This document shows positions 14,415 through 58,707 of a stretch of 64,000 bases of DNA, in pieces. The notes under the pieces were generated by a model, which had not been told where the DNA came from, made no database searches, and worked only from the letters and a program-made list of their open reading frames with translations. The DNA comes from Thermoplasmata archaeon (GTDB taxonomy: Archaea; Thermoplasmatota; Thermoplasmata; GCA-020350865). The position numbers and the translations under genes are program-made. Positions within the stretch are counted from its first letter, which is position 1. Every line of letters begins with the position of its first letter. The stretch lies in contig CP070751.1 in assembly GCA_020348445.1 (NCBI GenBank), positions 2,412,927-2,476,926 of the forward strand. Reading direction: 5' to 3'.

Positions 14415-15050
14415 TCATGTCAATCCATTGATCAAGTAAAAAATTCCCACCATGATCAGGACCATACCGCAGATATCTCTCAGCTTTTGAATTCCTATTT
14501 TCTTTCTCCATCTTCCCCCCACTTCTCCTGAGACTGTTCCCGCGGCTATGATTGCAAAGGAGCTTCCTATCCAAAATGTGAAAACAGACAGAAACATTGT
14601 TAGCATGTCCCTGGTCAATGTGGCCCTTACCAATGCTATCCACAACAAGGGACAAAAGAACGAACCAATTAAAAGTCCCAATATCACGGAGAACATTGGT
14701 CTGAAGTTCTCAGCCAATTTGGCTGGACACCATCTAGGTTTTGGAAGGCTGAACACGATCCACGCGCCGTATATTATCACCAAGCAACCCAAAATCACAA
14801 CTGCAAATTGTAAAAACGTTGAAGGACTCCTTTCAGTTAAAGCAGAGCCTATCATAAAGACAACAAGACCTATAGCTAGATATATCATAAGTCTACCCAT
14901 GGAGAAGAATATTGATGTAAAAAAACCTTCTCTTCGGGTTTTGTCCTTCTCCATTATGTAGGGAACCAGTATGGGGATACACAGCCCAAGACAGCTTATG
15001 CTGGCAACCAATCCAAAAACAAATGAGGTTCCTATGATGCTCCAATCCAT
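14415..15050 (-). CDS. DsbD_2/TauE-SafE-like (CcdA/UreH-type) 6-TM membrane protein, copy A
   Basis: SCLGLCIP (TM1), FSMGRLMIYLAIG, GLLIGSFFCPLL (TM4 Cys-Pro); divergently transcribed from the activator pair. Confidence 0.75.
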   Translation of the reverse strand: MDWSIIGTSFVFGLVASISCLGLCIPILVPYIMEKDKTRREGFFTSIFFSMGRLMIYLAIGLVVFMIGSALTERSPSTFLQFAVVILGCLVIIYGAWIVFSLPKPRWCPAKLAENFRPMFSVILGLLIGSFFCPLLWIALVRATLTRDMLTMFLSVFTFWIGSSFAIIAAGTVSGEVGGRWRKKIGIQKLRDICGMVLIMVGIFYLINGLT

Positions 15051-15243
15051 GTAATCGGATTAGCCAATAGGATTATTAAAACTTTGGGCCAACGTAAAAG
15101 CCAAACAAGTGCAGTGTACCGGTTTTTAAAAGAATTGATAAATAAAGTTAAATACCATATTCGTACATTCAGCGAAATGGAGCCAGGTAATCATAAAGAC
15201 AGAAGATGGGGCTCTAAAAAACCATGGGGGAGATCCCATTATA

Positions 15244-16014
15244 GTGGCTGGTTTGGATGTAGGGGCCATCACAATAAAGAGCGTGATCATGAAGGACGAC
15301 AAAATAGTTGGCTACAATCTTGCAAACACGGGTATGAGACCGGGAGAGGAGTCCAAGGGTCTTTTGGAAAAGAATCTTAATAAGCGCGGCCTTAATCTGG
15401 AAGACGTAAATTCGATAATTGCAACAGGTCACGGCAGACATTCTCTAGACTTTACAGAAATCAAAAAATCCGAAATCACATGCATTGCAAAGGGTGCTAA
15501 GAGACTGAATGACAAAAGCAGGATGGTGGTGGACATCGGGGGACAGGGTATCAGGGTCATCGAGCTAGACGAAAAAGGCGATGTGTCCAACTTCCTAACA
15601 AATGACAAATGCTCGGCAGGAACAGGATGTTTCCTTGATATGATGTCCTATGCCCTTCAGGTTGATTTGGATAAAATGGGCGAGCTCTCTCTAAATGCCT
15701 GTGAACCTAAGAAGCTTTCAACAACATGCAGCATATTTGCTGAGTCTGAGGTGGTCTCCCTTGTGGCCAGAGGCATGAAGAAGGAGGACATATTGGCAGG
15801 ACTCCACGATTCAGTTGCCAGGAAGGTTACAGGACTTGTCAAAACATTGGGTGTAAAAGGAGAGATCTTCTTGGCAGGTGGTGTTGCCAGAAATATCGGT
15901 GTGAGAAAGGCGCTGGAATCCAGATTAAATGGCAATATTTATGTTGCAAGATATCCTCAGATCGTGTGCGCATTGGGAGCTGCATTAATTGCCCAGGAGG
16001 AGGTGGGAAATTGA
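15244..16014 (+). CDS. ATP-dependent [4Fe-4S] activator/reductase, BadF/BadG/BcrA/BcrD (HgdC/DCCP-R-like), copy 1
   Basis: GLDVG, ATGHGR, SEITCIAKG, DIGGQ, NDKCSAGTG, STTCSIFAESE, GGVARN, ALGAAL. Confidence 0.92.
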   Translation: MAGLDVGAITIKSVIMKDDKIVGYNLANTGMRPGEESKGLLEKNLNKRGLNLEDVNSIIATGHGRHSLDFTEIKKSEITCIAKGAKRLNDKSRMVVDIGGQGIRVIELDEKGDVSNFLTNDKCSAGTGCFLDMMSYALQVDLDKMGELSLNACEPKKLSTTCSIFAESEVVSLVARGMKKEDILAGLHDSVARKVTGLVKTLGVKGEIFLAGGVARNIGVRKALESRLNGNIYVARYPQIVCALGAALIAQEEVGN

Positions 16015-16814
16015 CTATAACAGGGGGAGTGGATATAGGCTCCACTTATACCAAAGTCGTTGTTCTTAAGGACGACATTGTAGCAGGGTATGGAATACAA
16101 CCCACAGGAGCAAGCTCAGAAGGAGCGGCCCAGGCAGCAATGAAGGATGCCCTTGCCATGTCAGGCCTTTCCCTCGATGATATCCAATACATAGTATCAA
16201 CTGGTTACGGCAGAAGGGTAACTTCCCTCTCCAATGAAACCATTAGCGAGATTTCGGCTAATGGAAGGGGCTCCAAGTGGATAGGCGAGAAGCAGGACAT
16301 AAGGACCATCATCGACATAGGAGGGCAGGATACAAAGGTCATTGCACTGGACGATAATCTTGATATTCTCGATTTTAGAATGAACGACAAATGCGCAGCA
16401 GGAACAGGAAGGTTTTTAGAGGTTCTTGCCAACGAGCTCAAAGTCCCTTTGGATGATATGGGAGGGCTTTCTCTAAATGCTGAAAATCCCGTAGAGATAA
16501 CAACAACTTGTTTGGTTTTTGCTAAATCCGAGGTTGCCTCCCTCATCGCTAAAGGCGCAAAAAAAGAGGATATAATTGCAGGGATACACATAGCAATTGC
16601 GAGAAGGCTTATAGTGATGGCAAAGAAGGTGGGGATTAGGGAAGTTGTGTTTTTCGATGGGGGGCCCGCAAGAAATATAGGTATGAGAAAGGCCTTCGAG
16701 GACGAGCTTGGAATGAAGATATATGTAACAGAGCATCCCCAGATCGTTACAGCCACTGGGGCTGCGCTCATTGCCAAGGAAACTTTTGAGAGCAAAGGCG
16801 CGGGTTCTGCGTAG
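16011..16814 (+). CDS. ATP-dependent [4Fe-4S] activator/reductase, BadF/BadG/BcrA/BcrD, copy 2
   Basis: TTG start overlapping the upstream stop (TTGA) with GGAGGTG RBS; GVDIGSTYTK, STGYGR, DIGGQDTK, NDKCAAGTGRFL, TTCLVFAKSE. Confidence 0.92.
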   Translation: MTITGGVDIGSTYTKVVVLKDDIVAGYGIQPTGASSEGAAQAAMKDALAMSGLSLDDIQYIVSTGYGRRVTSLSNETISEISANGRGSKWIGEKQDIRTIIDIGGQDTKVIALDDNLDILDFRMNDKCAAGTGRFLEVLANELKVPLDDMGGLSLNAENPVEITTTCLVFAKSEVASLIAKGAKKEDIIAGIHIAIARRLIVMAKKVGIREVVFFDGGPARNIGMRKAFEDELGMKIYVTEHPQIVTATGAALIAKETFESKGAGSA

Positions 16815-16885
16815 AGAAAGAGGACTTCCAAAATATCAGTTAACACCGTGCATTTTCTACAAATTTTTTTCAAGGAGGAAAATTA

Positions 16886-19120: not shown

Positions 19121-19302
19121 GCCCGACTCTTATATGTGATATTATAATAAATAGTTTTTCGAAACTCATTTACTGGTACTATTTATACTTACCCCCTCGA
19201 AATAATTAATTTACCAAAACTTTTTAAATACCAAGAATATTACCGTTCCATCGTGCTGGGTTTAAAAATGACATATCCAAATCCAGATAGGAGGTGAAAT
19301 AC

Positions 19303-20997
19303 ATGATAAAAAAGTCAGGCTTTATTTTATGGATGTGTGTCTTTGGTCTATTTCTGAGCGCTTTTTCCATGAATGCAACAGCTCCAATCACTGGCACACC
19401 CCCTCCTTTGACTGGGGATTGGGTGATAAACGATGATACTGTGGTAACCGATGAAAATGTCGTCTGTGAAGGCTCGATAATCATTAATTCCGGGGGGAAC
19501 CTAACATTGGACGGCTCGACTGTCAAACTGAACTGTGCTACCGACGGCCAATACGGCATCGATGTAAAAAGCGGTGGTGAAATGCATATCAAGGGGGGTT
19601 CAACCATCGACAAGCACAGTGTCGGCAACTATTATTTCATAGTTAATGATGGTGCAAGTCTTGAGATGAAAGATAGCACCTTAAAATACTGCGGATATGA
19701 AAATGAAAATAATATCAGGCACACAGGTCTTTATATAGATGGCGATGGGCTAATTGAACATTGTACAATAGATGTCTGCTGTCAGGGTGTGATTGCAGAA
19801 AACTGCACAATTACCATCAAAGACAGCACCATAACAAGAAGCCTCTGGCATAATATTGTTGGACGAAACGTTGACATGACTCTTGATAACAATACAATTT
19901 CATGGGCAGAAAAAATGGGAGTCTGGGTTGGGATCAATTCTGACCTGACTATAAAAGATTGCCATGTTCACAATAGTACCAGATCCGGTATATGGGTTGA
20001 TCAGGATTCTGAAGTTGAATGTTATAAAACCAAGATAGCATGGAACGGCAACGAGTCCCGTACCCACTGGGACACCTCAGGACACGGTTTTGCGGGATTT
20101 GATAGCGATGTCTATTTCCACAATAATACAGTAAGCAACAATTGGGGGCACAATTTCGAGACCACGAGATGCTCTGCCATGTTTAACGATAATCACTTTG
20201 ATCAATCAATTAAGAAATGTAATGTGGAGTTCTTCGACCATTCAGTCGTTACAGCAAAGAGAAATTATATAGATGGTGCGGGGCACAATTGCTTCTGGGT
20301 CAGAGACGGTGTCACTGCAACAATAGAAGAATGTACAATGAAAAACAGTCCGCATAACGGGATATGGGCAGGCAACCAATCAACAATGATTATTAAGAAT
20401 AATATCATAGAAAACTGCGCTGAAAGCGGTATTTACAGCTACAATTCAACTCTCGAAATAACAAACAACGAGATTAAGAATTGTAAATGGTGGGGTATTC
20501 ATACTGAGGGCTGCACAGTAACCCAAAGTGGAAATACATACACATCAGTTACCAAAGGACAGGTTCACGAGGCTTACTTTATTACCCTAAAGGCCGTGGA
20601 TGAGGATGGAAAACCCATACAAGGGGCAACTATTACTGTAAAGGATTCTGCAGGTACCCAAATCTGGACAGGGACCACGGATACCAACGGTGAAACTCAG
20701 CACATGATATTAAGCGCTCAAAAGACAGATACGGGTGGAGCTTCCACTACATATACATACACTGTAGAGGCAAAAAAAGGTGATATGTCCAGCACAACCG
20801 AGATCACACCAACCAAAACCGATTCAGTCAGTTTAACCCTTAAAAGTGAGGAAGAAGAAGATAATTTGATGATGATAGTGGCGATCATCATAGTGGTCAT
20901 TCTGGTTGTGATTGTTTTAGTCGCAATTATGGCAAAGAAAAAAGGTAAGAAAGAAGTCCCACCAAAACAAGATACTCCCCCTGACGAAAATATTTAA
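19303..20997 (+). CDS. Right-handed parallel beta-helix (pectin-lyase/NosD-like fold) surface protein with C-terminal TM
   Basis: GGAGGTG RBS precedes ATG 19303; I.NN.I...GI repeats; prealbumin-like domain (VDEDGKPIQGATITV); TM followed by KKKGKK. Confidence 0.8.
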   Translation: MIKKSGFILWMCVFGLFLSAFSMNATAPITGTPPPLTGDWVINDDTVVTDENVVCEGSIIINSGGNLTLDGSTVKLNCATDGQYGIDVKSGGEMHIKGGSTIDKHSVGNYYFIVNDGASLEMKDSTLKYCGYENENNIRHTGLYIDGDGLIEHCTIDVCCQGVIAENCTITIKDSTITRSLWHNIVGRNVDMTLDNNTISWAEKMGVWVGINSDLTIKDCHVHNSTRSGIWVDQDSEVECYKTKIAWNGNESRTHWDTSGHGFAGFDSDVYFHNNTVSNNWGHNFETTRCSAMFNDNHFDQSIKKCNVEFFDHSVVTAKRNYIDGAGHNCFWVRDGVTATIEECTMKNSPHNGIWAGNQSTMIIKNNIIENCAESGIYSYNSTLEITNNEIKNCKWWGIHTEGCTVTQSGNTYTSVTKGQVHEAYFITLKAVDEDGKPIQGATITVKDSAGTQIWTGTTDTNGETQHMILSAQKTDTGGASTTYTYTVEAKKGDMSSTTEITPTKTDSVSLTLKSEEEEDNLMMIVAIIIVVILVVIVLVAIMAKKKGKKEVPPKQDTPPDENI

Positions 20998-21056
20998 GTA
21001 ACCAGTGACATATAAATATTAAAATTGCTATAGGGGAGTACTAAAGAGGACCAACA

Positions 21057-22136
21057 ATGAGATTGAGGAATCTATGGATCTGCACTGTGATACTACTTAT
21101 GACTATTGCCTTCTTTCCTTCTTCCCAAGCAGCACCAAAGGCAGTGGTCTACGAGATGGAGGTCTCAGCATTACCTGCTATTCAGGGAAAGGATCTTCCC
21201 ATCGAATTAAAATGTGAGGTCGGTTTTGGTGGTGCATGTTGCTATAGTGTGTATGCCCACGATGTAGAGGCGGAAATCATTCTTCCTGATAATATCACCT
21301 TGATCGCGGGAAAGCAAATCCAGACCGTGACCTCGTCGGGGCAATCTTCTGGGACCGTAGCTGTTGATCCTGGTGGCGGATTGACCCGGCTTTCTCAAAC
21401 TTGGATTATAAAAGGCGAAGAATACGGTGAATATACTGTATCTGTTCATATCACAGGGGAAAATGAACTTGGCGAAATAATTGATGAGACCCAGACCGCG
21501 AACATCACAATCGCTTCGGGTGCCTCTATTTCCAGTCCAGTTCTACCAAGAAGCCCTTCTGTAAATAAGGATATCATAATAATTGCAGAGGTCTTTAGCA
21601 CCGATAGTGCTGTTGCGAGTGTCACACTCTTTTACTCGAAGAATCAGAAGAATTGGGTCTCAGTTCCCATGGAGAATATAGAAGGTGAAACATGGATGGG
21701 TGAAATTCCGGGCCAAAAAAAGGAAGGCGAGGTTTATTACTACATGGAATCCCTGGATGGTGAGGGTGAAACTTTCACCACTGAGATATATTCTGTAGAG
21801 GTAAAGGACTTCGATAATATAGGAACAATAAAGGTTCTCGTCACCTACGGAACACTGACTGCTTTCATTCTTGGGATCGTATTGATTTTATATGCAGAAA
21901 AAAGGAGAAAGAAATCTACCAGCAGCACTGGATTGACGATTTTGGGTGCATCTCTCAGATTATCTGCCCTTCGAGGCCTGGATGAAATCGAAGATGATCA
22001 GAATAGGTTGAGAAAAATCAGGAAATGGGCTGCACTGATTATTATAATTATAGTCATAATATTGCTTGTTTTAGCAGTAGCTACCGGCCAACTTCAGGAG
22101 GTTGTAGACCACACAACCAATCCAACAGAGGCATGA
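21057..22136 (+). CDS. Exported membrane protein with Cys-x7-Cys-Cys motif, Ig-like domain and two C-terminal TM helices
   Basis: Signal peptide (SSQA|A), KCEVGFGGACCY, V.LFYS...W..VPM...GEIP...VYYY Ig-like domain also present in the 23559 protein. Confidence 0.75.
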   Translation: MRLRNLWICTVILLMTIAFFPSSQAAPKAVVYEMEVSALPAIQGKDLPIELKCEVGFGGACCYSVYAHDVEAEIILPDNITLIAGKQIQTVTSSGQSSGTVAVDPGGGLTRLSQTWIIKGEEYGEYTVSVHITGENELGEIIDETQTANITIASGASISSPVLPRSPSVNKDIIIIAEVFSTDSAVASVTLFYSKNQKNWVSVPMENIEGETWMGEIPGQKKEGEVYYYMESLDGEGETFTTEIYSVEVKDFDNIGTIKVLVTYGTLTAFILGIVLILYAEKRRKKSTSSTGLTILGASLRLSALRGLDEIEDDQNRLRKIRKWAALIIIIIVIILLVLAVATGQLQEVVDHTTNPTEA

Positions 22137-22155
22137 AATTCTGGAGAGCATAGAA

Positions 22156-23580
22156 ATGGAAAACAGCGCTAAAAAGGAAGCTGAGCCGAAAGAGATCCAA
22201 GAAGATGAAAGCGAGAAAGCAAAGGCGCCAGCTGCCATAACCTCATTGGGGCTATTGCTCTTGGTCACGGGGATAGTATGGTTGGTAGGATCATTAATAG
22301 CTATTTACGGTCTTGTAACTGGTTCTGATGAGGTAATTGCCATCTTCAAAGATGATGTGTATATGGTTGCGTTGTACGGATTTACCGGTTTTTTCGCCCT
22401 CGCATTGATGAGCGTTTTTGCAGGGATATTTCTTTTTAAACTGAGAAATGATGCCTTGTCCATGGCAATTGGCGCATCTCTCATGGGTATAGGAATAGGC
22501 CTTGTAGCCCTCACATTGAGTGATCTTCTGCTCGTGGGCATAATAAGTGTGGTGGCATATACGATTTTGATTTTTTTTCTATTTTTGGCTCCAGTTATGA
22601 GGAGGAGTTTCTCAACTATTCACTTAAGGCATTTTCGAACAGCTGCCCAGTTCAGTTTGCTATTTATTATCAACGCAACCATAATCGGATCCTTGATAGT
22701 GGCTCCTTTTCTACCCATACTGCGTTTTCGGCATATGGCGGGGGGTAGATTCGGTGTTCCCCTATGCTCTATAGGTTCTTTGGCAAGATGTTTGAGCGGC
22801 AATTGGTGGGGTCTTTTCATTCCGATTGCGGTGGTGGGTGTTTTAATACTCATAGGAATTCTAATAGGTAGAGCTATGTGCGGATGGGTCTGTCCCATCG
22901 GCTTTCTTCAGGATATGGTTACCAAAGCCAGAGTAAAACTGCATTTGAGTCCAAAGGAGCCATCGCAGAAAAACCATGAAAGACTGACTGTAGCCAAATA
23001 TGCGATTCTATTTCTATTATTACTGGTGGCGCTGAGCATCGGAATCTCAGCAATAGGCCATACCGAGGCAGGGGATCTCTACAGATCACAGTACTCTGAG
23101 CTACCTTTGATAGAGTCAGGAGCGACACCCTGCGAAGCATGCCCAGCACCCATAATAGGATACTTTTTCCCTGATGACTTCTTAGTTCACAGCCTTGATG
23201 GTTCCTTCGTGATGACCACAGAAGCGGGATTGAGATTGTTCGTTTTGGGTGTCTTTATCGCAGGTGCTATCTTTATGGGGAGGTTCTTTTGCAGGTACCT
23301 TTGCCCATCAGGAGCCATGATATCCTTTTTCAACAAAGGGAGCATGCTTTCCCTTTACAAGGACCAGGGCAAGTGCACAAAATGCAACTACTGCGTCACA
23401 GCCTGCCCAATGAGGATACAGGATCTTAAGGACGAGGATGTCGATTATGAGATCAGGGACAGGGAATGCATATACTGCCTCGATTGTATAGATGCGTGTC
23501 CTGAGAAGGCATTGATATTGAAATTCCAAAACAAGGAGATTTACAAGGGAGGAAAGGAATGGTGGGAAAAAGTTTCATAG
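22156..23580 (+). CDS. NapH/MauN/RdxA-type membrane 4Fe-4S binding protein, copy A (extra N-terminal TMs)
   Basis: PLCSIG, GRAMCGWVCPIGFLQD, PCEACP, RFFCRYLCPSG, CTKCNYCVTACP, CIYCLDCIDACP. Confidence 0.9.
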   Translation: MENSAKKEAEPKEIQEDESEKAKAPAAITSLGLLLLVTGIVWLVGSLIAIYGLVTGSDEVIAIFKDDVYMVALYGFTGFFALALMSVFAGIFLFKLRNDALSMAIGASLMGIGIGLVALTLSDLLLVGIISVVAYTILIFFLFLAPVMRRSFSTIHLRHFRTAAQFSLLFIINATIIGSLIVAPFLPILRFRHMAGGRFGVPLCSIGSLARCLSGNWWGLFIPIAVVGVLILIGILIGRAMCGWVCPIGFLQDMVTKARVKLHLSPKEPSQKNHERLTVAKYAILFLLLLVALSIGISAIGHTEAGDLYRSQYSELPLIESGATPCEACPAPIIGYFFPDDFLVHSLDGSFVMTTEAGLRLFVLGVFIAGAIFMGRFFCRYLCPSGAMISFFNKGSMLSLYKDQGKCTKCNYCVTACPMRIQDLKDEDVDYEIRDRECIYCLDCIDACPEKALILKFQNKEIYKGGKEWWEKVS

Positions 23581-25493: not shown

Positions 25494-25525
25494 TCCAAAA
25501 CAACATTAATACAGGAGTGTGCGAA

Positions 25526-26788: not shown

Positions 26789-26935
26789 TCCATTTAAACA
26801 ATGGGCTCAAAGAGTGAAAAGTCCAGGTTTCTAGGCTATTTCTATGGTTTAAATAGAATATACCAAAACGTTTATGACTATTTACGACAATGTATAGTTA
26901 ATCCCACTTAATAAAATGGGCAAGGAAGTGGTAAA

Positions 26936-40013: not shown

Positions 40014-40107
40014 AATATTGTATATCGTGTTATGCATAATGAGAAGTAAGTAATACTCCCTTAAAATAAGGGGATAATAAATATTGAGGTACGGGATTGT
40101 ATTAAAG

Positions 40108-47145: not shown

Positions 47146-50100
47146 GTGAGTGAGATGAAAGTTCATGTTTCTAGGACATCTGCTGTAGTTGTCATTATGA
47201 TGTTAATTATTACAAGTTCTTGGACAATGGTTCTTCAACCCTCAGAAAATATTATTAATGAATTATCTGAAGAGGAATCCCATTTGGATCCTGATCCAAG
47301 TGTTAACAGACCAACAAGAGCAGGGACACCCTGGCCGATGCACCGTAATAACCCTATTCACACAGCCTACACACCAGACTCTGGACCTATAACAGATGAG
47401 GTGCTGTGGGTTAATTATCCGCTTGGTAAGACTTTGGGCTCCCCTGCGGTGGTAGACGATAAAGTATTTATTGGAAGCGGAAACGGAATGAACGCATTTT
47501 ATATAGAAAACGGCTCACTAGCATGGCGTACTCCAACCTATAATGTGGTTCCTGGGGGCTATGGGCTCACTTCTGCACCTGCGTATTCCAATGGTTTTAT
47601 TTACTTTGGTGGAGATGGTTTTTACTGTCTTTATGAAAACAATGGTACAGTCAAATGGTTTGTTGATACTCCCCATCAAAACTGGGGAGATGGCACTCCC
47701 ACTGTTGCCAATGGCAAGGTCTTTATTCCAGGAAGTGATAGAAAATTGTACTGTCTCGATGAGGATGACGGAACTATAATTTGGACCTTTCAAACTGGTT
47801 CCGGTGGAAGCGCTAATTATGGATTGTACGCTGCTCCTGCCGTGGTAAACGGTTTTGTTTACCTGGCGGCCTGCGATTGGATCCTATATCAGATCAACGA
47901 GACCCAACCCACGATTACCGCTTCTGCATACAACACCTTCACAATGAACTATGCCTCCTATTCCACACCCGTTGTAGTAAATAATCGAGTATTTGTAGGA
48001 TGTGGATATACTGGGACAAGTACTAATAATCGCTTCTACTGCCTTGATGCAAACGATCTTTCTTTTATCTGGGAGTTTTATCCGGGCTCCTCAACCAGTT
48101 TCTTTTCCTCAGCAGGTTATTATAACAACAGGGTGTACATCGGTTCTCTGGATGGCAATCTCTATTGCCTCGATGCAACCAGCCCCTCAGCCAATGTTCT
48201 CTGGCAATACTACATAGGTCCCACTTGGTGCTCCCCTGCCATAACAAATGACAGGCTGTATATTGGTTCAAGATCTAATGTCTTCTACTGCTTCAATCTT
48301 TCTCAAACCTCTGGATCTGAGGAGTATTACTGGATATTCAATGCCTTGGATCAAGTAAATTCCTCACCTGCTGTGATGGATGGCAGAGTCTATGTGGGTT
48401 TTGGCTGGGAAGATAGTTCCAATGGAGGAGTTTACTGCTTCGGACCTCCACCAGTACCTCCCTCTGTGGACAGCATTCAAATCGAGGATCAGCCCGGCGG
48501 AATAGGCAACCCAATTCTCGATCAAACCATTGACGTGGGGGTACAAATTACGGGGTACGCAGCAGCATACAATGGAACTGATTACCTGTATGACATTGAG
48601 GTGGAATGGATGGTCGCCAATGGAAGCGGAGCAAATGCATCAACCTCACCCACGAATTCGGTGGATAGTTCTGATTTCTACTCTGGTTTTTTCGGGGGAA
48701 CAGCAACATGGACTGCAGATGATGGACTTGGCCATATTTACCAGGTGGAGTTCACGATAAGAGATCCCGCTGTTGAGTACATCAGTATTGTGGATACTGA
48801 GAACATTGGTTCATCCGAGATTATGGATCAAATAGTGGATGTTGGGTTCACAAAAAAAGGCTATGCCGCATCATTTAATATAACAACCGGATATATGGGA
48901 GATGTAATAGTTAATTGGAGTGTTCAAAATACCACTTCCTCGGCCTTCACAAGTCCATCCCAGGCCACGAACTCAACATTCAATGCAAGCCTTTTAGGCG
49001 GGATAGCCACATGGATTGCCGATGACGGGAAAGGGCATACAGACGAGGTCGAGTTCACGATAAGAGACCCTACTGTGGACGACATCTTGATTGTTGACAC
49101 CGAAGGAATTGGCTCCTCTGAGATCACAGGAAAAACCGTGGATGTTGGATATACTATTGTAGGTTATGCTGCAGGCTTTAACGATACAGCAGGATATATC
49201 GGAGATGTTCCAGTTAACTGGTATGTGGTAAACACGAGCGGAGCCGAAGGTTTTACCTCCCCGACTTCGGGGCCAAATTCAATTCTTAACGTTAGCTTTA
49301 AAAATGGCACTGTAGAATGGATTGCAGATTATGGGGGCGGTCATACCGATTCTGTTGTATTTTCGGTGCGAAAGCCAACTGTTGATTATATCATAATCAG
49401 AACAGGCTCGAAAGGAACAGGAAGCTGGGTGGGGGATTCCACATATATCTTCGGGACCACTGATACATTCTATGCAGGGGGTTACAATAATACAGCAGGC
49501 TGGATAGAAGATGTGGATGCCGAATGGGAAAGTGACAATCAGCCTGTGGGAAATGTTAGTATGGGTCCCTCCAACTCCACAACCTTCTCTGCAATAAACA
49601 ACGGAACCTGCAATATCACTGCAACTTACGATAAATTTTCGAATACGACAGGTGTTATATCTGTCATCAACTACACAATCGATTACATTATAATCAGGGA
49701 TTCACCAGGTGGAGAAGGTTCAGTTGTGGAAGATATGAATTTCGCAGTTGGAGGAACTGCGACTTTCTATGCCGCTGCCTACAATGAATCATCTGGCTAT
49801 CTTGGAGATGTAGGAGTGGAATGGGAATCCAGTAATGAAACCATCGCAATCGTAACGAGCCCTGGGATCTCAACACTTTTTACTGCTCAATTTATTGGCG
49901 GGGAATGCAATGTCACTGCAACATACGATTCATTAATTTCCAATGTAACTGGAACGCTAACCGTTTTAGATGCAGAGATAAATTATATTCTGATTACTAA
50001 TGCACCAAATGGGGATGAAATTTCCACTGTTTATTTGAATGTGAACGAGACCATAACAGTTTATGCATCAAGTTACAATGAATCCACATCACTATATCTG

Positions 50101-51864
50101 GGTTTGGTGGAGGTTAACTGGGATCAATTTCCTGCTATCGGGTCATTCAACCTACCCACGGGGAGTTCCACAACATTCAGGGCAGGGATGTCGGGAGGGA
50201 CTACCTCGATCAATGCAACATATACATCCCTGGGGCTTTGGGATAATTTCACGCTGGTTATTAACGATCCCACAGTTGATTATATCCAAATAAGGGATGA
50301 AAGTGGTGGTTTAGGTGATGTTATTTCGCAGGCCAGCTTCACACTTGGAGATATTGTTTCTGATACATACTATTGCGCAGGTTACAACTACACGGCAGAT
50401 TACATAGACGACATGTCTGCAAATTGGGTGGTAATCGGTAATATAGGCACTGTTATCCCAAGCTCAGGTACATCAACACAATTTACCGCCACAACTGCGG
50501 GATCAGGGGAAATCACCGCAAGTTACAATGGAAAATCCACATCAGCAGATATTACAATATATCCAGAACCTGATCTAACTCCTCCTGCAGCGCCAACTGG
50601 ACTTCGGGTTCGTCAGGTGGCCACTGGAGGTGCATTGAGTTTAACATGGAATCCCAATACAGATGCTGATTTGGCAGGGTACAACATCTATCGGTCAACT
50701 ACAAATGGAACAGGATATGAAAAGGTAAATACCGAGCTGGTCACAGAAACTCAATTTCCCAATACAGGTCTCATAAATGGAGTAACTTATTACTTTTATA
50801 TCACAGCTGTAGACGATGCTCCCACACCAAACGAATCTCCACCTTCAGATACAGTTGACAATGTATGCGATGTTGATACAGACGGAGATGGGGTATACGA
50901 TAATAATGATGATGATGATGACAATGATGGCCTTTCAGATTCCGAAGAAGCTGACATTCAAACAGATCCCAAAAATCCAGATACTGATGGGGATGGATAC
51001 AACGATGCCGAGGATGAAGCTCCACTTGATCCGCACAAACATCAAAAAGAAGATCCCCCGCCCGATGCACCTACGGGCTTGGTTGTGACTCCACTTTCTT
51101 CAGGGGATGCCCTCAACATTTCTTGGGATGCAAATACCGAGGAAGACCTAGCAGGATATAATCTCTTTCGCTCTCTGCTTCCTGATAGGGAGTTTGAGAG
51201 GTTAAATAATGATGTTATAACGTCTGAGTATTACGTTGATAGCTCATTAACTTCCGGAGTCAAGTACTATTATTATGTGGTGGCAGTGGACACCACTAGT
51301 CAAATCTCTGATCCGTCCGAAAAAATAAGTGGTGTTCCCGATATCGATACCGATTCTGATGGAAAACTTAACTATGAAGATGATGATGATGACAATGATG
51401 GTCTTACAGATTCTGAAGAAGAGGATATGGGAACAGATCCTTTGCGGGAGGACTCGGATGGAGATGGGTATATCGATTCTGAGGATTTTTATCCGTTAAA
51501 TGCAGGGAAGTGGGAGAAATCAAAAGAAGAAGATTTTAATGTTTTATTATTGTTGATTCCAATTATTCTGATCGTCATATTACTGTTATTTTTTATTTTA
51601 ACAAAAAAACGCAAACCTGAGGAAGTTCCTCCACCAATATCTGCCCCAGAGAGAGTATTGCCTCCCCCGCCAGCAGGATACGTACAAAAGAAAGAGACTC
51701 CAGTAATCGAGCAAAAGGAAATGCCATTACCCCAAGAAGAGGAAGAATCTCCACTTCCTGATGACGAAGAATTTCCTACTCCTGAGGACAAGAAAGAACT
51801 TCTATCTCCTGAAGATGAAGAGGAGCCTTTTGACGAGGATGCACTGCCACCTCCTGACGATTGA
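47146..51864 (+). CDS. Giant TM-anchored surface protein: PQQ-like propeller, 7 x ~100-aa Ig-like repeats, 2 x (Fn3 + TSP3), TM, Pro/acidic tail
   Basis: RPTRAGTPWPMHR; repeats P.[VI]DYI.I.D...Y.A.YN...D[VI].V.W; DTDGDG/DDDDDNDG; TM followed by KKRK; many N-x-S/T sequons. The start may be 47155. Confidence 0.88.
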   Translation: MSEMKVHVSRTSAVVVIMMLIITSSWTMVLQPSENIINELSEEESHLDPDPSVNRPTRAGTPWPMHRNNPIHTAYTPDSGPITDEVLWVNYPLGKTLGSPAVVDDKVFIGSGNGMNAFYIENGSLAWRTPTYNVVPGGYGLTSAPAYSNGFIYFGGDGFYCLYENNGTVKWFVDTPHQNWGDGTPTVANGKVFIPGSDRKLYCLDEDDGTIIWTFQTGSGGSANYGLYAAPAVVNGFVYLAACDWILYQINETQPTITASAYNTFTMNYASYSTPVVVNNRVFVGCGYTGTSTNNRFYCLDANDLSFIWEFYPGSSTSFFSSAGYYNNRVYIGSLDGNLYCLDATSPSANVLWQYYIGPTWCSPAITNDRLYIGSRSNVFYCFNLSQTSGSEEYYWIFNALDQVNSSPAVMDGRVYVGFGWEDSSNGGVYCFGPPPVPPSVDSIQIEDQPGGIGNPILDQTIDVGVQITGYAAAYNGTDYLYDIEVEWMVANGSGANASTSPTNSVDSSDFYSGFFGGTATWTADDGLGHIYQVEFTIRDPAVEYISIVDTENIGSSEIMDQIVDVGFTKKGYAASFNITTGYMGDVIVNWSVQNTTSSAFTSPSQATNSTFNASLLGGIATWIADDGKGHTDEVEFTIRDPTVDDILIVDTEGIGSSEITGKTVDVGYTIVGYAAGFNDTAGYIGDVPVNWYVVNTSGAEGFTSPTSGPNSILNVSFKNGTVEWIADYGGGHTDSVVFSVRKPTVDYIIIRTGSKGTGSWVGDSTYIFGTTDTFYAGGYNNTAGWIEDVDAEWESDNQPVGNVSMGPSNSTTFSAINNGTCNITATYDKFSNTTGVISVINYTIDYIIIRDSPGGEGSVVEDMNFAVGGTATFYAAAYNESSGYLGDVGVEWESSNETIAIVTSPGISTLFTAQFIGGECNVTATYDSLISNVTGTLTVLDAEINYILITNAPNGDEISTVYLNVNETITVYASSYNESTSLYLGLVEVNWDQFPAIGSFNLPTGSSTTFRAGMSGGTTSINATYTSLGLWDNFTLVINDPTVDYIQIRDESGGLGDVISQASFTLGDIVSDTYYCAGYNYTADYIDDMSANWVVIGNIGTVIPSSGTSTQFTATTAGSGEITASYNGKSTSADITIYPEPDLTPPAAPTGLRVRQVATGGALSLTWNPNTDADLAGYNIYRSTTNGTGYEKVNTELVTETQFPNTGLINGVTYYFYITAVDDAPTPNESPPSDTVDNVCDVDTDGDGVYDNNDDDDDNDGLSDSEEADIQTDPKNPDTDGDGYNDAEDEAPLDPHKHQKEDPPPDAPTGLVVTPLSSGDALNISWDANTEEDLAGYNLFRSLLPDREFERLNNDVITSEYYVDSSLTSGVKYYYYVVAVDTTSQISDPSEKISGVPDIDTDSDGKLNYEDDDDDNDGLTDSEEEDMGTDPLREDSDGDGYIDSEDFYPLNAGKWEKSKEEDFNVLLLLIPIILIVILLLFFILTKKRKPEEVPPPISAPERVLPPPPAGYVQKKETPVIEQKEMPLPQEEEESPLPDDEEFPTPEDKKELLSPEDEEEPFDEDALPPPDD
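48460..50568 (+). repeat. Seven tandem ~100-aa Ig-like stalk repeats
   Basis: Aligned by eye; related copies occur at about 28115-29020 (3x) and 53050-53340 (1x). Confidence 0.8.
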
Positions 51865-54290: not shown

Positions 54291-57218
54291 ATGAGGCTAG
54301 AATTGAACAGAAAAAAGATTGCTCGTGGGCAATTGTCGATTTTAGTGGCATTTCTATTCGTATTCTCAATCATGGATGCGTTTTCCATGACTGTTTACAA
54401 TGAATCAGAAAGAAATGTCGCTTTCTTTGATTACGAGCCGCAAGACGACGGTAAACAACCTGATCCGCATGGTGTAAGATCCGAGGAGCCCATATGGTCG
54501 CCATATTCTGGCTCTCTACCCGATGCTCTTAGTTATTACAGCATAGATTTCGGTGATGTGAACAACGATGGCAAACTGGATATCGTTGTGGGCGGAGGCC
54601 AGAATCCAAGCAGTGATGGTATTCATTGTTGGGTGGGCGATGGATTTGGGGGATGGTCAGAAGAATCTTCTGGCTTACCAACATCGCAATGGCGTTCTGA
54701 TGTTGAGCTGGGTGATTTAAACAACGACGGTAAGCTCGATATCGCCTGCGGTGGACTGATATATACGGGCAACGGCGGAGCTGGTGGCCCTATGGTATGG
54801 ACATCGGAAAATAATCCTTCATACCCCTGGCTTGGCGTGGCCTTGGGTGATGTAAACAACGATGGAATATTGGATATTGCTGCTGGAACAGACAACTGGG
54901 GTATAAAGATCTGGGTGAGCAACGGCAAGGCAGGAGGCTCCTTTATATGGACCAATTCTTCTGGCGGTCTTCCTACATCTGGGCAGTATTATGGAACATA
55001 TCTTGGTGATGTGAACAACGACGGAAATCTCGATCTCGCCGCCGCAACTAACGAACAAGAAGGAATTAGGGTATGGACAGGCAATGGAGAATCCGGCTCC
55101 TCAGCACTTTGGACCGATGTATCAACATCAACTGGCCTGCCCACTACAGGGGATTATTCTCAGGTTTGCTTTGGAGATGCGAACAACGATGGAAAACTGG
55201 ATGTCGCCGGCTCAAAACGATCTGGGGGTGTTAAGTTCTACAAGGGCAACGGTGGCGAAGGTGGATTTTCATGGGTTGAAGAATCAAATGGTCTTGCAAC
55301 AACTAATTGGTATTATGGTCTTGCCTTTGGCGATGTAAACAACGATGGGAACCTAGACCTCGTGGGAGCCAACTATACTGGAAGAGGTTTAGAAGTCTGG
55401 CTGGGAGATGGAGGTTCAGGAGGTTCTGTGGATTGGAGCCCTGCAAGGGAAGGATTACTTGACATCTCAAATGCCCTGGATTTATGCCTAGGAGATGTGA
55501 ACAACGACGGACGGCTCGATATCGGGGTCACATCAGAGATGATGGGAATCCAGGTTTGGGCGGGCAATTTACCGGATTTGGCGATTACTGGTTGGACCTC
55601 AGTCTCTTCTGGGCTTCCAACAAGTTCCGGCTATTATGACGTGATTTTCGGCGATATAAATCATGACGGTAAATTGGACCTCGCCGGAGCAGGTAAAGAC
55701 AATCAAGGTATAGGAGTATGGCTGGGAGATGGAACAGGTAATTGGGCTGAAGTATCTGATTTTGATCTTCCCTCAAATGGAGACTATTGTGGGGTGAGAT
55801 TGAAGGATGTGAATCATGATGGTAATTTGGATTTAATTGCCTCAAGCGATGATCAACTCGGTGTTCTGATATGGCCTGGTGATGGGACAGGTGGTTTTGG
55901 TGCAGGCTCAGGGCCAACTGATCCGGCAAGCCCCCCTAATATGGCGGGAGTGGAGGTTGCCGATATCAATTGCGACGGCAATGTGGATATCGCTACCTGT
56001 TATTATGAGCCTCCTCAATCTGGAGATAAGGTATATGCCTGGCTTGGTGATGGAAGTGGTGGATGGGGATCTGATATTGGTCCTCCAGTAGAGCTAGGTT
56101 TTGATGATGTGGCTCTCGGGGATGTGGATCATGATGGGAAAATAGATCTATTAGCAACAGCCCATATGCAGGGATACAGGTTCTGGTTGGGAGATGGTAC
56201 TGGGGGATGGAGTTTGCAACCTCAAAATGGTCTACCCTCATCCAGTGGGATTGGAGGCCTGGGAGTCTGCTTTGGTGATGTGAACCATGATGGAGATTTA
56301 GACATTGCTGTGGGTTCATGGGCGGGCTCTTACGGTGTGCGGGTTTATACCAGTGATGGTGGAGATGGTGGAGCTGTGGATTGGGTAAATGACTCTGTGG
56401 GCCTGCCAACGGTGGGAACCTACGGAGGGGTGGAGTTTGGAGATATAAACAATGACGGTAACCTTGACATTCTTTCCGCAAATGCGGGAGGAGGACAAAG
56501 TAATGGCATCAGCCTGGCTTTAGGAAATGGAGGTGAAGGCGGATCAATGGTATGGACTGACTCCAGCCTTCCAGATCTTCCTTTGTCTGGTAATTATTGG
56601 GGCGTTGCTTTGGGAGATATCAACAACGATGGTATTCTTGACATAGCCATATCCTCAGCAAATACTGGTATTAGGGTGTATATCACTCAAACCCAGCCAA
56701 CCTATCAAATCAACCTTCTAGAGGGTTGGAACCTCATATCCCTGCCTTTAATCCAGTCAGATCCTACCGTGTATAACGTCCTTGGATCCATTTCTGGAGA
56801 ATACAAGGCAGTGCAATGCTACGATACAGATGATGCAAACGATCCCTGGAAACACTATAATCCCGATAAACCCTCACAACTCAACGATTTGACAGATTTG
56901 GACCATACCATGGGGATCTGGATATATATCACTGAACCTGGCGGAACCACGCTAACAGTATATGGAGGTCAATTTAGTGGTGGACAATCAATTACAATAC
57001 GCCCGGGTTGGAATCTTGCTGGATTTCCCTCACAAACAGACAAACTTCGAGATGTCGCTCTAAATAATACTGTATCCGATATCGATTATGTCGGGTATTT
57101 TGATGCGTCAACAGATAGATTTGTGATATTAACTGACAGCGATTACATGGAAGTAGGTAGAGGCTACTATATTCATTCGACAAATCCCTCTGATATCGTA
57201 TGGAATGTTCCCCTTTAG
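54291..57218 (+). CDS. Exported FG-GAP/VCBS double beta-propeller protein with divergent GWNL domain
   Basis: About 14 GD[VI]N[NH]DG.LD repeats; tail EGWNLISLP...GWNLAGFP...GYYIH; no TM. Confidence 0.87.
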   Translation: MRLELNRKKIARGQLSILVAFLFVFSIMDAFSMTVYNESERNVAFFDYEPQDDGKQPDPHGVRSEEPIWSPYSGSLPDALSYYSIDFGDVNNDGKLDIVVGGGQNPSSDGIHCWVGDGFGGWSEESSGLPTSQWRSDVELGDLNNDGKLDIACGGLIYTGNGGAGGPMVWTSENNPSYPWLGVALGDVNNDGILDIAAGTDNWGIKIWVSNGKAGGSFIWTNSSGGLPTSGQYYGTYLGDVNNDGNLDLAAATNEQEGIRVWTGNGESGSSALWTDVSTSTGLPTTGDYSQVCFGDANNDGKLDVAGSKRSGGVKFYKGNGGEGGFSWVEESNGLATTNWYYGLAFGDVNNDGNLDLVGANYTGRGLEVWLGDGGSGGSVDWSPAREGLLDISNALDLCLGDVNNDGRLDIGVTSEMMGIQVWAGNLPDLAITGWTSVSSGLPTSSGYYDVIFGDINHDGKLDLAGAGKDNQGIGVWLGDGTGNWAEVSDFDLPSNGDYCGVRLKDVNHDGNLDLIASSDDQLGVLIWPGDGTGGFGAGSGPTDPASPPNMAGVEVADINCDGNVDIATCYYEPPQSGDKVYAWLGDGSGGWGSDIGPPVELGFDDVALGDVDHDGKIDLLATAHMQGYRFWLGDGTGGWSLQPQNGLPSSSGIGGLGVCFGDVNHDGDLDIAVGSWAGSYGVRVYTSDGGDGGAVDWVNDSVGLPTVGTYGGVEFGDINNDGNLDILSANAGGGQSNGISLALGNGGEGGSMVWTDSSLPDLPLSGNYWGVALGDINNDGILDIAISSANTGIRVYITQTQPTYQINLLEGWNLISLPLIQSDPTVYNVLGSISGEYKAVQCYDTDDANDPWKHYNPDKPSQLNDLTDLDHTMGIWIYITEPGGTTLTVYGGQFSGGQSITIRPGWNLAGFPSQTDKLRDVALNNTVSDIDYVGYFDASTDRFVILTDSDYMEVGRGYYIHSTNPSDIVWNVPL

Positions 57219-57294
57219 TTCTACGAATCCAAGCATAAATGCTCCTTTTCATATTATTGAAATATTAGAACAAGATAATGGGAAGATAGGAGGG

Positions 57295-57774
57295 TTACCC
57301 CTTTCTTTTCTTAAAACCTGCCATCCTGGGACAGCTGTCTTTCAAATTGCAATCCTCGCATCCATATTTTTTTGTAATGACAGGTAGCATAATGAATCCC
57401 ATTATTATGAAGATGGAAAATAGGACAAGAAGTGTGATAGAGAATTCATAGTAGAGAAGGTATATCCCAGCTAAAACGGGGAGGATCCATGATGGAAAGA
57501 CAATACCAATATGCCTTCTGAACGTATCATTGAATTTCTTTGAATCTCTCTCTTTAAAAAGCTTGGCTGCTACCCTAGCATATCCACTTGGACATTTTGG
57601 ATTATCAAAATGAGGGCAATGGGCGCAAATGAATCTCATGAACCAAAGGGTGCTGAAAATGCAATACAGGACATAGACCAAAAAAAACAACCAACCCAAA
57701 AATAACATGATAACGGCCCCGAGCGCATATGTGGAAAATGTGGGTAAGTTATGCAATACCTTATTTGCTCCCAT
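57295..57774 (-). CDS. Small 4-TM membrane protein with two CxxC-x5/7-C motifs
   Basis: GGAGG RBS; CAHCPHFDNPKC and CEDCNLKDSC. Confidence 0.75.
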   Translation of the reverse strand: MGANKVLHNLPTFSTYALGAVIMLFLGWLFFLVYVLYCIFSTLWFMRFICAHCPHFDNPKCPSGYARVAAKLFKERDSKKFNDTFRRHIGIVFPSWILPVLAGIYLLYYEFSITLLVLFSIFIIMGFIMLPVITKKYGCEDCNLKDSCPRMAGFKKRKG

Positions 57775-57867
57775 GAATTTCTTTCCTCCATTTTACTATC
57801 TTGGGCAATTTGTTGTTACATTTCTCCAATATACGCATATTTCAATTAAACGAAATACAATATGAAA

Positions 57868-58707
57868 TTATATCTTATCTTTAGAATCTAACCCAGGAAT
57901 CCCACATGCATCTGCCCTACACTGTTTACATGCTCTGAATATGGGAATTATGCTCTCGCATGCCTCTCGGGAAGCGATAAGCTCATCACAGGTTGGAGCC
58001 CTAAGATGTTTGAATTCTCCTAAAGGAATCAAGGGCATAATATTCATTATAAAGACACCCCGTTTTTGAATTTCATAGGCGATATCCTTTACATGTTCCA
58101 GATTTATTTCAGGAATAAGCACGGTGTTGACCTTGGTCAAGAATCCCAATTCAGAGGCAATTTCCAGGCCTTCAAGCTGCTTTGATACAAGAACCTCAGC
58201 CCCTTCAATGCCACTTAGTATGTTACCCTCCACTATAGAATATGAAGAGATTTTCGAGGCGACTTCTGGATCAACTGCATTTATTGTTAGTGTAAGGGAT
58301 TTCACATTAAGTTCTTTTAAGATCCTGGCTTTCTCGGGTAAAAGAAGACCGTTTGTACAAACGCATAATTTTAAGTCCGGGAAATTCTCCCCAACTAGCC
58401 TCAGGGTCTCTAATGTCTCTTGATTGTAAAGAGGTTCACCAGGACCTGAGATACCCACAACTGCCATAGAAGGATTCTTTTCCATTGCCTTCTCTACAGC
58501 CAAAATTGCTTCTTCTGGCTTTATCAATTCATAAGCCAATCCAGGGCGCGAACTATGATAATAAGGTGAGACCTTCCTGTCACAATATTTACAGGCTATG
58601 TTGCATTTTGGTGCTACGGGAAGGTGGATTCTCCCAATCTTGTGATGCGCCTGTGTACTGTAACACGGATGTGATTGAGAAAGCTCTATTATATCACCAT
58701 TTAACAA
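57868..58707 (-). CDS. nifB: NifB-type radical SAM protein (stand-alone SAM domain, no NifX domain)
   Basis: HPC, RIHLPVAPKCNIACKYC, SRPG, SGPGEP, TLTIN, CKQCRADACG. Confidence 0.87.
   Translation of the reverse strand: MLNGDIIELSQSHPCYSTQAHHKIGRIHLPVAPKCNIACKYCDRKVSPYYHSSRPGLAYELIKPEEAILAVEKAMEKNPSMAVVGISGPGEPLYNQETLETLRLVGENFPDLKLCVCTNGLLLPEKARILKELNVKSLTLTINAVDPEVASKISSYSIVEGNILSGIEGAEVLVSKQLEGLEIASELGFLTKVNTVLIPEINLEHVKDIAYEIQKRGVFIMNIMPLIPLGEFKHLRAPTCDELIASREACESIIPIFRACKQCRADACGIPGLDSKDKI

Follow-up and report, generated by a model that had tools for sequence, protein, structure and literature searches.

We analysed a 64,000-nucleotide stretch of the genome of a Thermoplasmata archaeon (contig CP070751.1, positions 2,412,927 to 2,476,926; "the window" below), in which two genes for double-cubane-type Fe-S proteins, DCCP1 and DCCP2, lie among genes for membrane-bound polyferredoxins and exported proteins (Table 1). 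The genome, G000, is a single contig of 5.16 Mb, and the window corresponds to G000:C1:2412927-2476926; other labels with G denote sampled genomes, those with L loci, and those with f families of Thermoplasmata. Close relatives of this genome are labelled as uncultured Thermoplasmata or Methanomassiliicoccales archaea, and the EMG1/Nep1 gene present in the window fits an archaeon. Approximately two thirds of the window codes for exported proteins; these have a signal peptide and, in most cases, a transmembrane (TM) anchor at the C-terminus. Families were assigned with Pfam and NCBIfam models. The initial annotation had listed two copies each of a double-cubane-type reductase, an activator, a NapH-type membrane protein and a DsbD_2-type protein; all eight genes were found in the places and families given there.

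The window contains two paralogous copies of this gene set. Copy A spans 19294-32416, and copy B comprises 32598-41163 and 57295-63971, while the segment 14415-16814, with one heterodimer-type activase pair and a DsbD_2 protein, appears to be common to both. In each copy the DCCP gene is coupled by an overlap or near-overlap to a gene for a NapH-like protein with four TM helices, and is accompanied by genes for DsbD_2-family and for exported, anchored proteins; the propellers and other partners in both copies carry an N-terminal signal peptide and a C-terminal TM anchor. The start codon of DCCP2 overlaps the stop codon of NapH2 (ATGA) and is preceded by a Shine-Dalgarno-like AGAGGTGG, an arrangement that we read as translational coupling of the two genes.

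Table 1. Genes of the two double-cubane modules and associated features, in window coordinates
Feature	Position	Strand	Evidence or remark
DsbD_2-family six-TM protein (o10), divergent from activase pair	14415-15050	-	PF13386 86 bits, cutoff 24.9
Activase A, BcrAD_BadFG / HgdC-type ATPase	15244-16014	+	TIGR00241 241 bits
Activase B	16011-16814	+	TIGR00241 247 bits; TTG start overlaps activase A stop (TTGA)
Exported beta-helix (NosD-like) protein, 17 Cys, C-terminal TM anchor	19294-20997	+	Beta_helix 98 bits, NosD 38 bits
o15, exported anchored protein directly 5' of NapH1	21057-22136	+	invariant GG(A/C)CCY motif in alignment
NapH-like polyferredoxin 1 (NapH1)	22156-23580	+	two Fer4_5 + Fer4 dicluster domain
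o17, exported anchored protein between NapH1 and DCCP1	23559-25493	+	signal peptide + TM anchor
DCCP1, double-cubane-type reductase	25526-26788 (alternative start 25517)	+	NF040772 422 bits, cutoff 350
Two exported "Cys-head" proteins (o19, o20)	26936-32416	+	mature N-terminus CFxQxTxC(E/D)Gx2VxQGDGGxTDYWY in both
Three exported anchored beta-propellers: PQQ-like, WD40, FG-GAP	32598-36898	+	Pfam, signal peptides, TM anchors
Divergent DsbD_2-like membrane protein (mem250)	36909-37661	+	profile-profile comparison only
NapH-like polyferredoxin 2 (NapH2)	37681-38637 (alternative start 37627)	+	two Fer4_5 + dicluster ferredoxin domain
DCCP2, double-cubane-type protein	38634-40013	+	NF040772 325 bits, just under 350 cutoff
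Exported anchored Kelch propeller	40084-41163	+	behind DCCP2 only in window's genus
Large PQQ-propeller surface protein	47146-51864	+	relatives follow DCCP2 (or NifB-o33) in other families
o33, small 4-TM Cys-rich membrane protein	57295-57774	-	conserved CxxCx6-7C and GCxxC motifs
NifB, radical-SAM-domain-only as in archaea	57868-58707	-	TIGR01290 272 bits
Exported anchored PQQ propeller, between NifB and permease	58792-60231	-	signal peptide + TM anchor
Duplicated FtsX/MacB-type permease, 1234 aa	60267-63971	-	FtsX twice, 92 bits

Both reductases match the Pfam family HGD-D, as would ordinary subunits of a 2-hydroxyacyl-CoA dehydratase or a benzoyl-CoA reductase (BCR). The cutoff of the double-cubane model NF040772 is passed by DCCP1 and missed by DCCP2 alone, and against the structures of the Carboxydothermus hydrogenoformans DCCP (PDB 7YYL/6ENO) the two proteins score 322 and 239 bits, respectively. 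The models for HadB/HadC and BzdN/BzdO, on the other hand, give 19-121 bits against cutoffs of 420-750 (e.g. HadC 115 and 100 bits, cutoff 700; BzdN 121 and 85 bits, cutoff 454), and BcrC gives 62 and 65 bits (cutoff 421). Each module has one HGD-D gene without a paired second subunit, no gene of a CoA pathway or of acyl-CoA metabolism was found in the window, and none of the double-cubane ligands is missing. On the grounds of model scores, Cys pattern and absent partner subunits we reject a dehydratase or BCR identity; no clustering with true dehydratases was found, in agreement with the initial annotation, which had described reductases of the DCCP type rather than HgdAB or BcrBC, with no acyl-CoA genes around them. 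Three further HGD-D systems are encoded elsewhere in G000 (G000:C1:1386464-1390578, 2936891-2940970 and 3100325-3101858), each with its own activase gene or genes, and two of these three consist of paired HGD-D genes with tandem activases, i.e. a dehydratase- or BCR-like layout.

The six Cys residues that would bind the double cubane (Cys 71, 109, 138, 301, 334 and 367 in DCCP1; Cys 140, 179, 209, 374, 408 and 441 in DCCP2, in the numbering of the long open reading frame) are invariant in about 160 aligned sequences, both window proteins included. They line up with Cys36/73/100/263/293/327 of BzdN, which hold the [8Fe-9S] cluster in BzdNOPQ (PDB 8S02; PMC11971306), and the C. hydrogenoformans DCCP, a member of the same fold family, uses the same six Cys for its [4Fe4S]-S-[4Fe4S] cluster (PMC9351452). 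A seven-Cys motif has been published for double-cubane proteins (bioRxiv 10.1101/2022.07.06.499078). DCCP1 possesses all seven residues, the seventh conserved one being Cys90, and this Cys is present in 83 of 83 canonical sequences. In DCCP2 it is replaced by Gly (at the second position in motif order), it is variable in the DCCP2-like group, and BzdN also lacks it. Because the six ligands of BzdN map to the six positions kept in DCCP2, the ligand set of DCCP2 can be considered complete. Loss of the seventh Cys was rejected as a marker of linkage to NifB, as it varies in DCCP2-like proteins both with and without NifB.

Analysis of the relatives reveals that the window proteins do not belong to the canonical group. 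Among 80 loci with the closest relatives of DCCP1, 70 contain a canonical DCCP-activase pair and nine have a NapH-like gene nearby. In a tree of 102 sequences, which were sampled by similarity to DCCP1 and analysed with a quick search that left out the C. hydrogenoformans protein, the NapH-adjacent DCCPs form one clade (Shimodaira-Hasegawa-like approximate likelihood ratio support, SH-aLRT, 99). This clade includes 17 NapH-adjacent sequences and two without an adjacent NapH gene (L024, with no NapH match, and L025, with NapH about 8 kb off), and it splits into a DCCP1 branch from Thermoplasmatota and a DCCP2 branch from Thermoplasmata, one Dehalococcoidia locus and one Nitrospirota locus. Its members differ from the C. 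hydrogenoformans type in residues beside the ligands: E135P before Cys4, D333T/I/L before Cys6 and Y362H/Q before Cys7. BzdN resembles DCCP2 in this respect too, as neither has Glu before Cys4.

In the reverse sample, comprising the 80 nearest relatives of the NapH-like protein retrieved with a four-sequence alignment as query, a DCCP gene lies directly downstream on the same strand in 45 cases, which cover at least 10 bacterial and archaeal phyla. These 45 NapH-DCCP loci contain an activase (35), a DsbD_2 gene (24), a TonB-dependent receptor (23) or a DUF4198-like periplasmic protein whose HxCxWGH motif is conserved (21). The gene order is propeller, unknown, DsbD_2, NapH, DCCP, activase, activase in the Dehalococcoidia locus L026, and DsbD_2, NapH, DCCP, activase, activase in Bathyarchaeia. 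An exported protein just 5' of NapH is a constant feature across lineages, although its family changes: the bacterial partners belong to at least two unrelated groups, and no homology was found between the archaeal o15 and the bacterial DUF4198-like protein (hhalign probability 2%). Long ORFs that suggested a NapH-DCCP gene fusion in L033 and L199 turned out to be high-GC or other-frame artefacts, and the genes are separate.

The co-localisation of DCCP, NapH, DsbD_2 and activase genes thus recurs in many genomes, far beyond chance. The gene set has its own DCCP clade, a downstream DCCP in 45 of 80 NapH relatives and a conserved operon B (see below), for which reasons we do not regard it as an accidental assembly; the idea of the initial annotation that the four components form a conserved module is borne out, given that the same neighbourhood is found in at least 10 phyla. 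Altogether, that the window merely juxtaposes unrelated genes, or holds common dehydratase or BCR subunits, is in our estimation highly improbable. In 11 of the sampled loci (Campylobacterota, Zetaproteobacteria and others) NapH and DsbD_2 occur without DCCP. A TonB receptor, NapH-like and DsbD_2 set lacking DCCP and activase is present in Sulfuricurvum, Mariprofundus, other Zetaproteobacteria and sulfur-oxidising Gammaproteobacteria (L236, L241-L243, L245, L246, L248-L250, L252, L254-L257 and L264). NapH and DsbD_2 may represent an older core, to which DCCP was added in strict anaerobes.

In each of the two NapH-like proteins, four core TM helices are combined with two Cys-Pro motifs and two CX2CX2CX3CP motifs. 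In the four helices, the CX3CP motifs and the C-terminal two-cluster ferredoxin domain they resemble NapH, NosR and CcoG (FixG), of which CcoG is a cupric (metal) reductase, while NosR and NapH serve extracytoplasmic redox enzymes. NapH1 is extended by a TM region at its N-terminus and has a CxxC in a loop predicted to lie at the outer face, which is retained in its bacterial relatives; NapH2 differs from the NapH family in that its Cys-Pro motifs are CX3CP and CX2CP and the outer-loop CxxC is lost. The ferredoxin domain of NapH and the DCCP are predicted to be cytoplasmic because of the positive-inside charge distribution and the topology of E. coli NapH. Both proteins score 82-88 bits with NapH models, below the cutoffs of 213-234; no nap genes (the partners NapG, NapA and NapB) and no Nos or cbb3 genes are present in the window, and the partner is instead a DCCP.

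This architecture, together with the in vitro reduction of small molecules by DCCP (PMC9351452), would be compatible with a respiratory or detoxifying terminal reductase, in which a NapGH-like route feeds electrons from the membrane pool to DCCP for the reduction of a small imported substrate, the surface genes being mere neighbours. We consider this quite improbable. Besides the low NapH scores and the missing nap genes, the order of the exported partners is the same in four families and their genes overlap the redox genes, and electrons are unlikely to flow uphill from quinol to a cluster below -500 mV.

As to the DsbD_2 proteins, the initial annotation had proposed a duplicated gene. For o10 this follows from the Pfam match (there is also a weak 41-bit match to an ArsG-type permease), whereas mem250 matches nothing in Pfam or NCBIfam and could be assigned by profile-profile comparison only: its profile, built from 12 orthologues, aligns over the full length with the DsbD_2 profile (hhalign probability 96%, E 5e-9). 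Relative to DsbD_2, mem250 has a His/Lys-rich loop as an insertion. Both proteins have one conserved Cys per half (in TM1 and TM4 of mem250), and mem250 is always encoded directly 5' of NapH2.

Activase A gives 205 bits with the HadI activator 4EHT and 138 bits with DCCP-R, the HgdC-type ATPase partner at the C. hydrogenoformans locus (7YYL_E). Tandem activase pairs beside NapH-DCCP in L025, L032 and L199 contain an orthologue of activase A (o11) as first and of activase B (o12) as second gene, with 56-65% identity for B. The A orthologues adjoin the NapH-linked DCCP in L025 and L199, and in L199 the genes NapH, DCCP, actA and actB follow one another closely, with a gap of 2 nt and two subsequent overlaps. 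Because o11 and o12 belong to the actA and actB groups of tandem pairs beside NapH-DCCP, analogy with the heterodimeric activase BzdPQ (PMC11971306) suggests that they form a heterodimer. Consequently, the two activator genes noted initially do exist, but instead of one activator per reductase they are better read as a single actA/actB heterodimer-type pair. The window pair lies 9-22 kb from the DCCP genes, unlike DCCP/DCCP-R, and G000 encodes five more activases, each beside another HGD-D system.

The surface genes of the two copies differ. In copy A the order is beta-helix protein, o15, NapH1, o17, DCCP1 and two Cys-head proteins. The position of o15 5' of NapH1 is kept in five other Thermoplasmatota loci (L021, L022, L025, L032 and L033), o17 orthologues occupy the same position in L021 and L022, and the Cys-head motif occurs within the 5.16 Mb genome only in o19 and o20, and also in the L022 orthologues encoded after DCCP1. 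In seven surface proteins of the window (genes at 7789, 10041, 12461, 30329, 41341, 44913 and 54291) the TM anchor is replaced by a C-terminal domain of about 50 aa (...ALSSISGSYNKVEFF...GKE...GYWIHVT.DC...; positions 9900-14407, 32200-32416, 44650-44820, 46880-47048 and 57050-57218), with a weak match in the deltaproteobacterial locus L062; it may be a lineage-specific sorting or attachment domain.

Operon B is conserved in four Thermoplasmata families, f1, f15, f20 and f29. In the latter three the order is FtsX permease, PQQ propeller, WD40, FG-GAP, DsbD_2-like protein, NapH2, DCCP2 and PQQ surface protein; in f1, the family of the window, the permease block is inverted and in the window comprises o33, NifB, the PQQ protein and the permease (57295-63971). 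The PQQ-like, WD40, FG-GAP propeller order is fixed across the four families. Synteny thus identifies the FtsX permease as the first gene of the operon in other families. It shows weak ADOP and LolC matches, and like "orphan" ADOP permeases it has no adjacent ATPase: no ABC ATPase gene was found beside it in the window, G048 or G183, and the upstream genes vary. The tight operons with exported or surface proteins described initially are therefore confirmed by overlapping genes and conserved gene order.

In f15 and f29, NifB and o33 directly follow DCCP2 in the same orientation, separated by 40-80 bp (seven sampled genomes). NifB and the MacB-type permease, previously noted further along the window, belong to the same gene set. 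The window NifB contains the motifs HPC, CNIACKYC (CX3CX2C), TLTIN (TxTxN) and CKQCRADACG (CX2CRADA). Its score is under the TIGR01290 cutoff of 344 because this model takes in the NifX domain missing from archaeal NifBs; the orthologue in G029 reaches 360 bits. The gene o33 follows NifB in L013, L014, L188, L189, L194 and L198. For o33, as for o15, searches of Pfam, NCBIfam and Atlas gave only uncharacterised families or generic Ig/CARDB-like folds. An o33 paralogue, 27% identical, is encoded at G000:C1:3771663-3772136.

Across 401 Thermoplasmata genomes, DCCP2 orthologues were found in 17, all in f1, f15, f20 and f29, and NifB in 80, of which 64 belong to mcrA-positive families and 16 to these four. 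NifB is present in 15 of the 17 DCCP2 genomes, the two exceptions being 78-86% complete; as related genomes are not independent, this co-occurrence counts as roughly four observations at the level of lineages. NifB-made clusters are known to be used by the nitrogenase family and by the MCR activation complex (NifEN/NifDK, MarDK, McrC/Mmp7; PMC12176620, PMC13474568), where, likewise, a complex Fe-S protein is served by an ATP-dependent donor. We found no nifH in G000, no mcrA in G000, G001, G018, G029 and G039, and no PF00148 (NifDK/EN-type), PF02579 (NifX-type) or PF04609 (McrC) members in G000, G001, G018, G113 and G309, the genomes checked being 76-96% complete by marker count. Since nitrogenase-family and MCR-activation genes were not found there, NifB in these genomes lacks a known client, and its neighbour is an HGD-D/DCCP-family protein, which has not been reported as one.

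In the NifB tree, the proteins of f15, f29 and f20 are sister to those of methanogenic Methanomassiliicoccales, while the window genus occupies a separate long branch; the closest relatives of the window NifB are ordinary NifBs of methanogens or anaerobic methanotrophic archaea (ANME) with no DCCP nearby. The NifB-DCCP link is therefore a feature of the Thermoplasmata operon, not of a special NifB clade. As NifB adjoins DCCP2, co-occurs with it and is without another known client, it is probably tied functionally to operon B. That DCCP2 itself is the recipient of a NifB-made cluster is a more tentative proposal, and it is similarly doubtful whether NifB builds a carbide-containing [8Fe-9S-C]-type or related fused cluster for membrane-docked DCCP2 in these non-methanogenic, non-diazotrophic Thermoplasmata.

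Several other loci combine nifB or nitrogenase-like genes with related components. A BcrAD_BadFG-type ATPase, about 30% identical to activase B, is encoded about 1.5 kb 5' of nifB in Methanobrevibacter and relatives (L131, L132, L135-L138, L143, L168 and L178), and is probably part of the methanogenesis-marker cluster said to precede nifB of M. marburgensis (PMC12176620). CbiM, an ABC ATPase and CbiQ are encoded about 2 kb from nifB in the Methanoperedens-related loci L111, L129 and L130. In a Syntrophus metagenome-assembled genome (MAG; L096, 4406-10926) a canonical-clade DCCP and an activase precede genes for a transglutaminase-like protein, a binding protein of the ModA type, a short protein resembling NapH, a divergent radical SAM protein of NifB-like type and a rhodanese. 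In the cultured Sporomusa ovata DSM 2662 (L238; NZ_CP146301.1:2547578-2557510, locus positions 170-8779) a NifH-like and two NifDK-like genes lie directly 5' of the exported protein, NapH-like, DCCP and activase genes; the NifDK-like proteins are nearest to methylthio-alkane reductase (best PDB match 9FMG/9D9U).

Taking these data together, we propose that the window encodes two copies of a membrane-docked, ATP-driven double-cubane system that handles a captured metal or cofactor substrate, a reading to which we assign a probability of about 0.5. The exported partners, Cys-rich in copy A, and three propellers with an FtsX-type permease in copy B, would capture an external metal- or cofactor-type substrate. 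The DsbD_2-type protein, with its two TM Cys residues and, in copy B, its His-rich loop, would serve the passage of the substrate, or of thiol reducing power, through the membrane. The NapH-like protein would dock DCCP at the membrane and relay electrons between its cytoplasmic [4Fe-4S] and CX3CP sites and the double cubane, which the activase would charge with very low-potential electrons at the expense of ATP. In copy B, an Fe-S protein, most likely DCCP2, may receive a NifB-made fused [8Fe-9S(-C)]-type cluster or serve NifB. Handling of an external substance is suggested by the exported partners, the bacterial TonB receptors and the DsbD_2 proteins, and a hard reduction rather than thiol chemistry by the very low potential of the system. 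The likeliest substrate class would be a transition-metal species or a metallocofactor, with cobalt or a corrinoid as the candidate best supported by the bacterial contexts.

The same components could also work in the opposite direction, with ATP-boosted electrons passing from DCCP through the NapH-like and DsbD_2 proteins to the outer face, where Cys residues or bound metal or sulfur of the surface proteins would be reduced or kept reduced. In favour of this, relatives of the DsbD/CcdA type transfer reducing equivalents to the outside, each half of both DsbD_2 proteins retains a Cys, a CxxC is found in the predicted outer loop of NapH1 and its bacterial relatives, and the copy A partners display the invariant CC and Cys-head motifs. 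Moreover, in BzdN electrons are stored or relayed by the double cubane (PMC11971306); this protein shares with DCCP2 the absence of the seventh Cys and of Glu before Cys4. Because the residues beside the cluster are changed, partly as in BzdN, the double cubane of the NapH-linked clade might likewise be a relay to NapH and not an active site, which would fit outward delivery. However, disulfide or thiol chemistry requires neither electrons below -500 mV nor ATP. NapH2 no longer has the outer CxxC, a conserved metal or Cys site is absent from the copy B propellers, and a transmembrane redox cofactor is not known for the NapH family; the TonB receptors and binding proteins of bacterial loci, in turn, suggest import. 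We therefore regard outward delivery as unlikely. The suggestion made initially, that electrons or chemistry are directed to the cell surface, is supported as far as the exported partners are concerned, but DCCP and the Fe-S domain of NapH are on the cytoplasmic side by prediction, and uptake fits at least equally well.

A specific form of the uptake model is the supply of corrinoid or cobalt: the module would reduce the cobalt of salvaged corrinoids (e.g. Co(II) to Co(I) before adenosylation) or handle cobalt for B12 synthesis, and the surface propellers would be corrinoid or metal traps. Reduction of Co(II) to Co(I) requires a very low potential. Cobalamin riboswitches were found in 4 of 31 bacterial NapH-DCCP loci and in none of seven canonical DCCP loci (148 kb). 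In L234 and L244 the riboswitch is directly 5' of the exported-protein, NapH, DCCP and activase set, and in L221 and L238 it is next to the NapH-DCCP set; CobA/BtuR is encoded behind the activase in L234, and in Sporomusa ovata CbiK follows the riboswitch, which is located after the module. In the window, genes for CbiM, CbiQ and an ABC ATPase, a cobalt/nickel importer of the energy-coupling factor type, lie at 2522-4998 on the reverse strand, 9 kb from the DsbD_2 and activase genes. The B12 link is thus real for a subset of the bacterial NapH-DCCP loci but not general: a riboswitch is missing from most of them, the cassette of TonB receptor, DUF4198, NapH, DCCP, activase and DsbD_2 lacks an upstream riboswitch in 14 of 15 loci, the archaeal operons hold nothing B12-specific, and NifB is left unexplained. 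Other loci have ModABC (before the module in L244) or nitrogenase-like neighbours. As the general function of the module, corrinoid supply appears to us rather improbable.

Several observations weigh against the proposed substrate-handling system or parts of it. The exported partners are non-homologous between lineages, and related genomes are not independent samples. Genomes G001, G018, G048 and G113, in which DCCP2 is present, hold only orthologues of the activases of another HGD-D system; because genomes with the DCCP2-NifB operon lack a dedicated activase, ATP drive for DCCP2 is an assumption that calls for shared or promiscuous activases. As to cobalt, no riboswitch was found in the window or in L026, L078, L095, L096 and L028, no B12 gene is tied to the archaeal operons, and the position of the CbiMQO genes in the window may be coincidental. 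As to NifB, its gene is elsewhere in the genome and unlinked to the operon in f20, and it is absent from other genomes with NapH-DCCP modules. To our knowledge, the canonical DCCP assembles its cluster without NifB, and the six Cys ligands of DCCP2 suit an ordinary double cubane better than the two-ligand L-cluster.

Among known systems, the closest is DCCP/DCCP-R. In contrast to that bare two-gene system, the window genes are coupled to genes for NapH-like, DsbD_2 and exported proteins, the activase is a two-gene pair not adjacent to DCCP, and in DCCP2, whose gene is linked to NifB, the seventh conserved Cys is missing. BzdNOPQ differs by its BzdO-type catalytic partner and CoA-ester genes, neither of which is found in the window, and by the model scores far under the cutoffs. 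In the clostridial SAO locus (Haft, bioRxiv 10.1101/2022.07.06.499078) a double-cubane gene is located beside genes for transport and for Cys-rich extracytoplasmic proteins, suggestive of metal handling. There, however, the DCCPs are canonical with an adjacent activase, and the selenoproteins, MerB-like lyase and ABC importer have no counterparts here; none of the 20 proteins scanned against NCBIfam matched a Sao family model (SaoL/B/P/T/X/C/E/D). The resemblance is conceptual only. Two tRNA-Sec genes (8306-8398 and 13521-13614) flank the canonical DCCP-activase pair of a Marinifilaceae MAG (L051), a context that fits the reported tie of canonical double-cubane proteins to selenium systems.

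In the profile libraries and literature searched we found neither the module nor a NifB-DCCP link described. The module is a multi-component form of the DCCP/DCCP-R system, and the direct DCCP2-NifB-o33 adjacency is its new element. DCCP reduces acetylene, azide and hydrazine in vitro, but its natural substrate is unknown and its role has been open since 2018 (PMC9351452, PMC11971306). The NapH-wired DCCP subfamily offers concrete contexts for the role of the double cubane, i.e. metal or corrinoid handling, in hosts that include cultured organisms such as Sporomusa ovata. The role of NifB homologues apart from nitrogenase and methanogenesis has been raised as a question in recent reviews (PMC13474568); the orphan NifB in the DCCP2 operon names a candidate client and makes this question directly testable. 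If NifB does build a cluster for DCCP2, this would join the two known kinds of eight-iron clusters, and the HGD-D/double-cubane family would be added as a third class to the NifB clients known so far, the nitrogenase family and the MCR activation complex.

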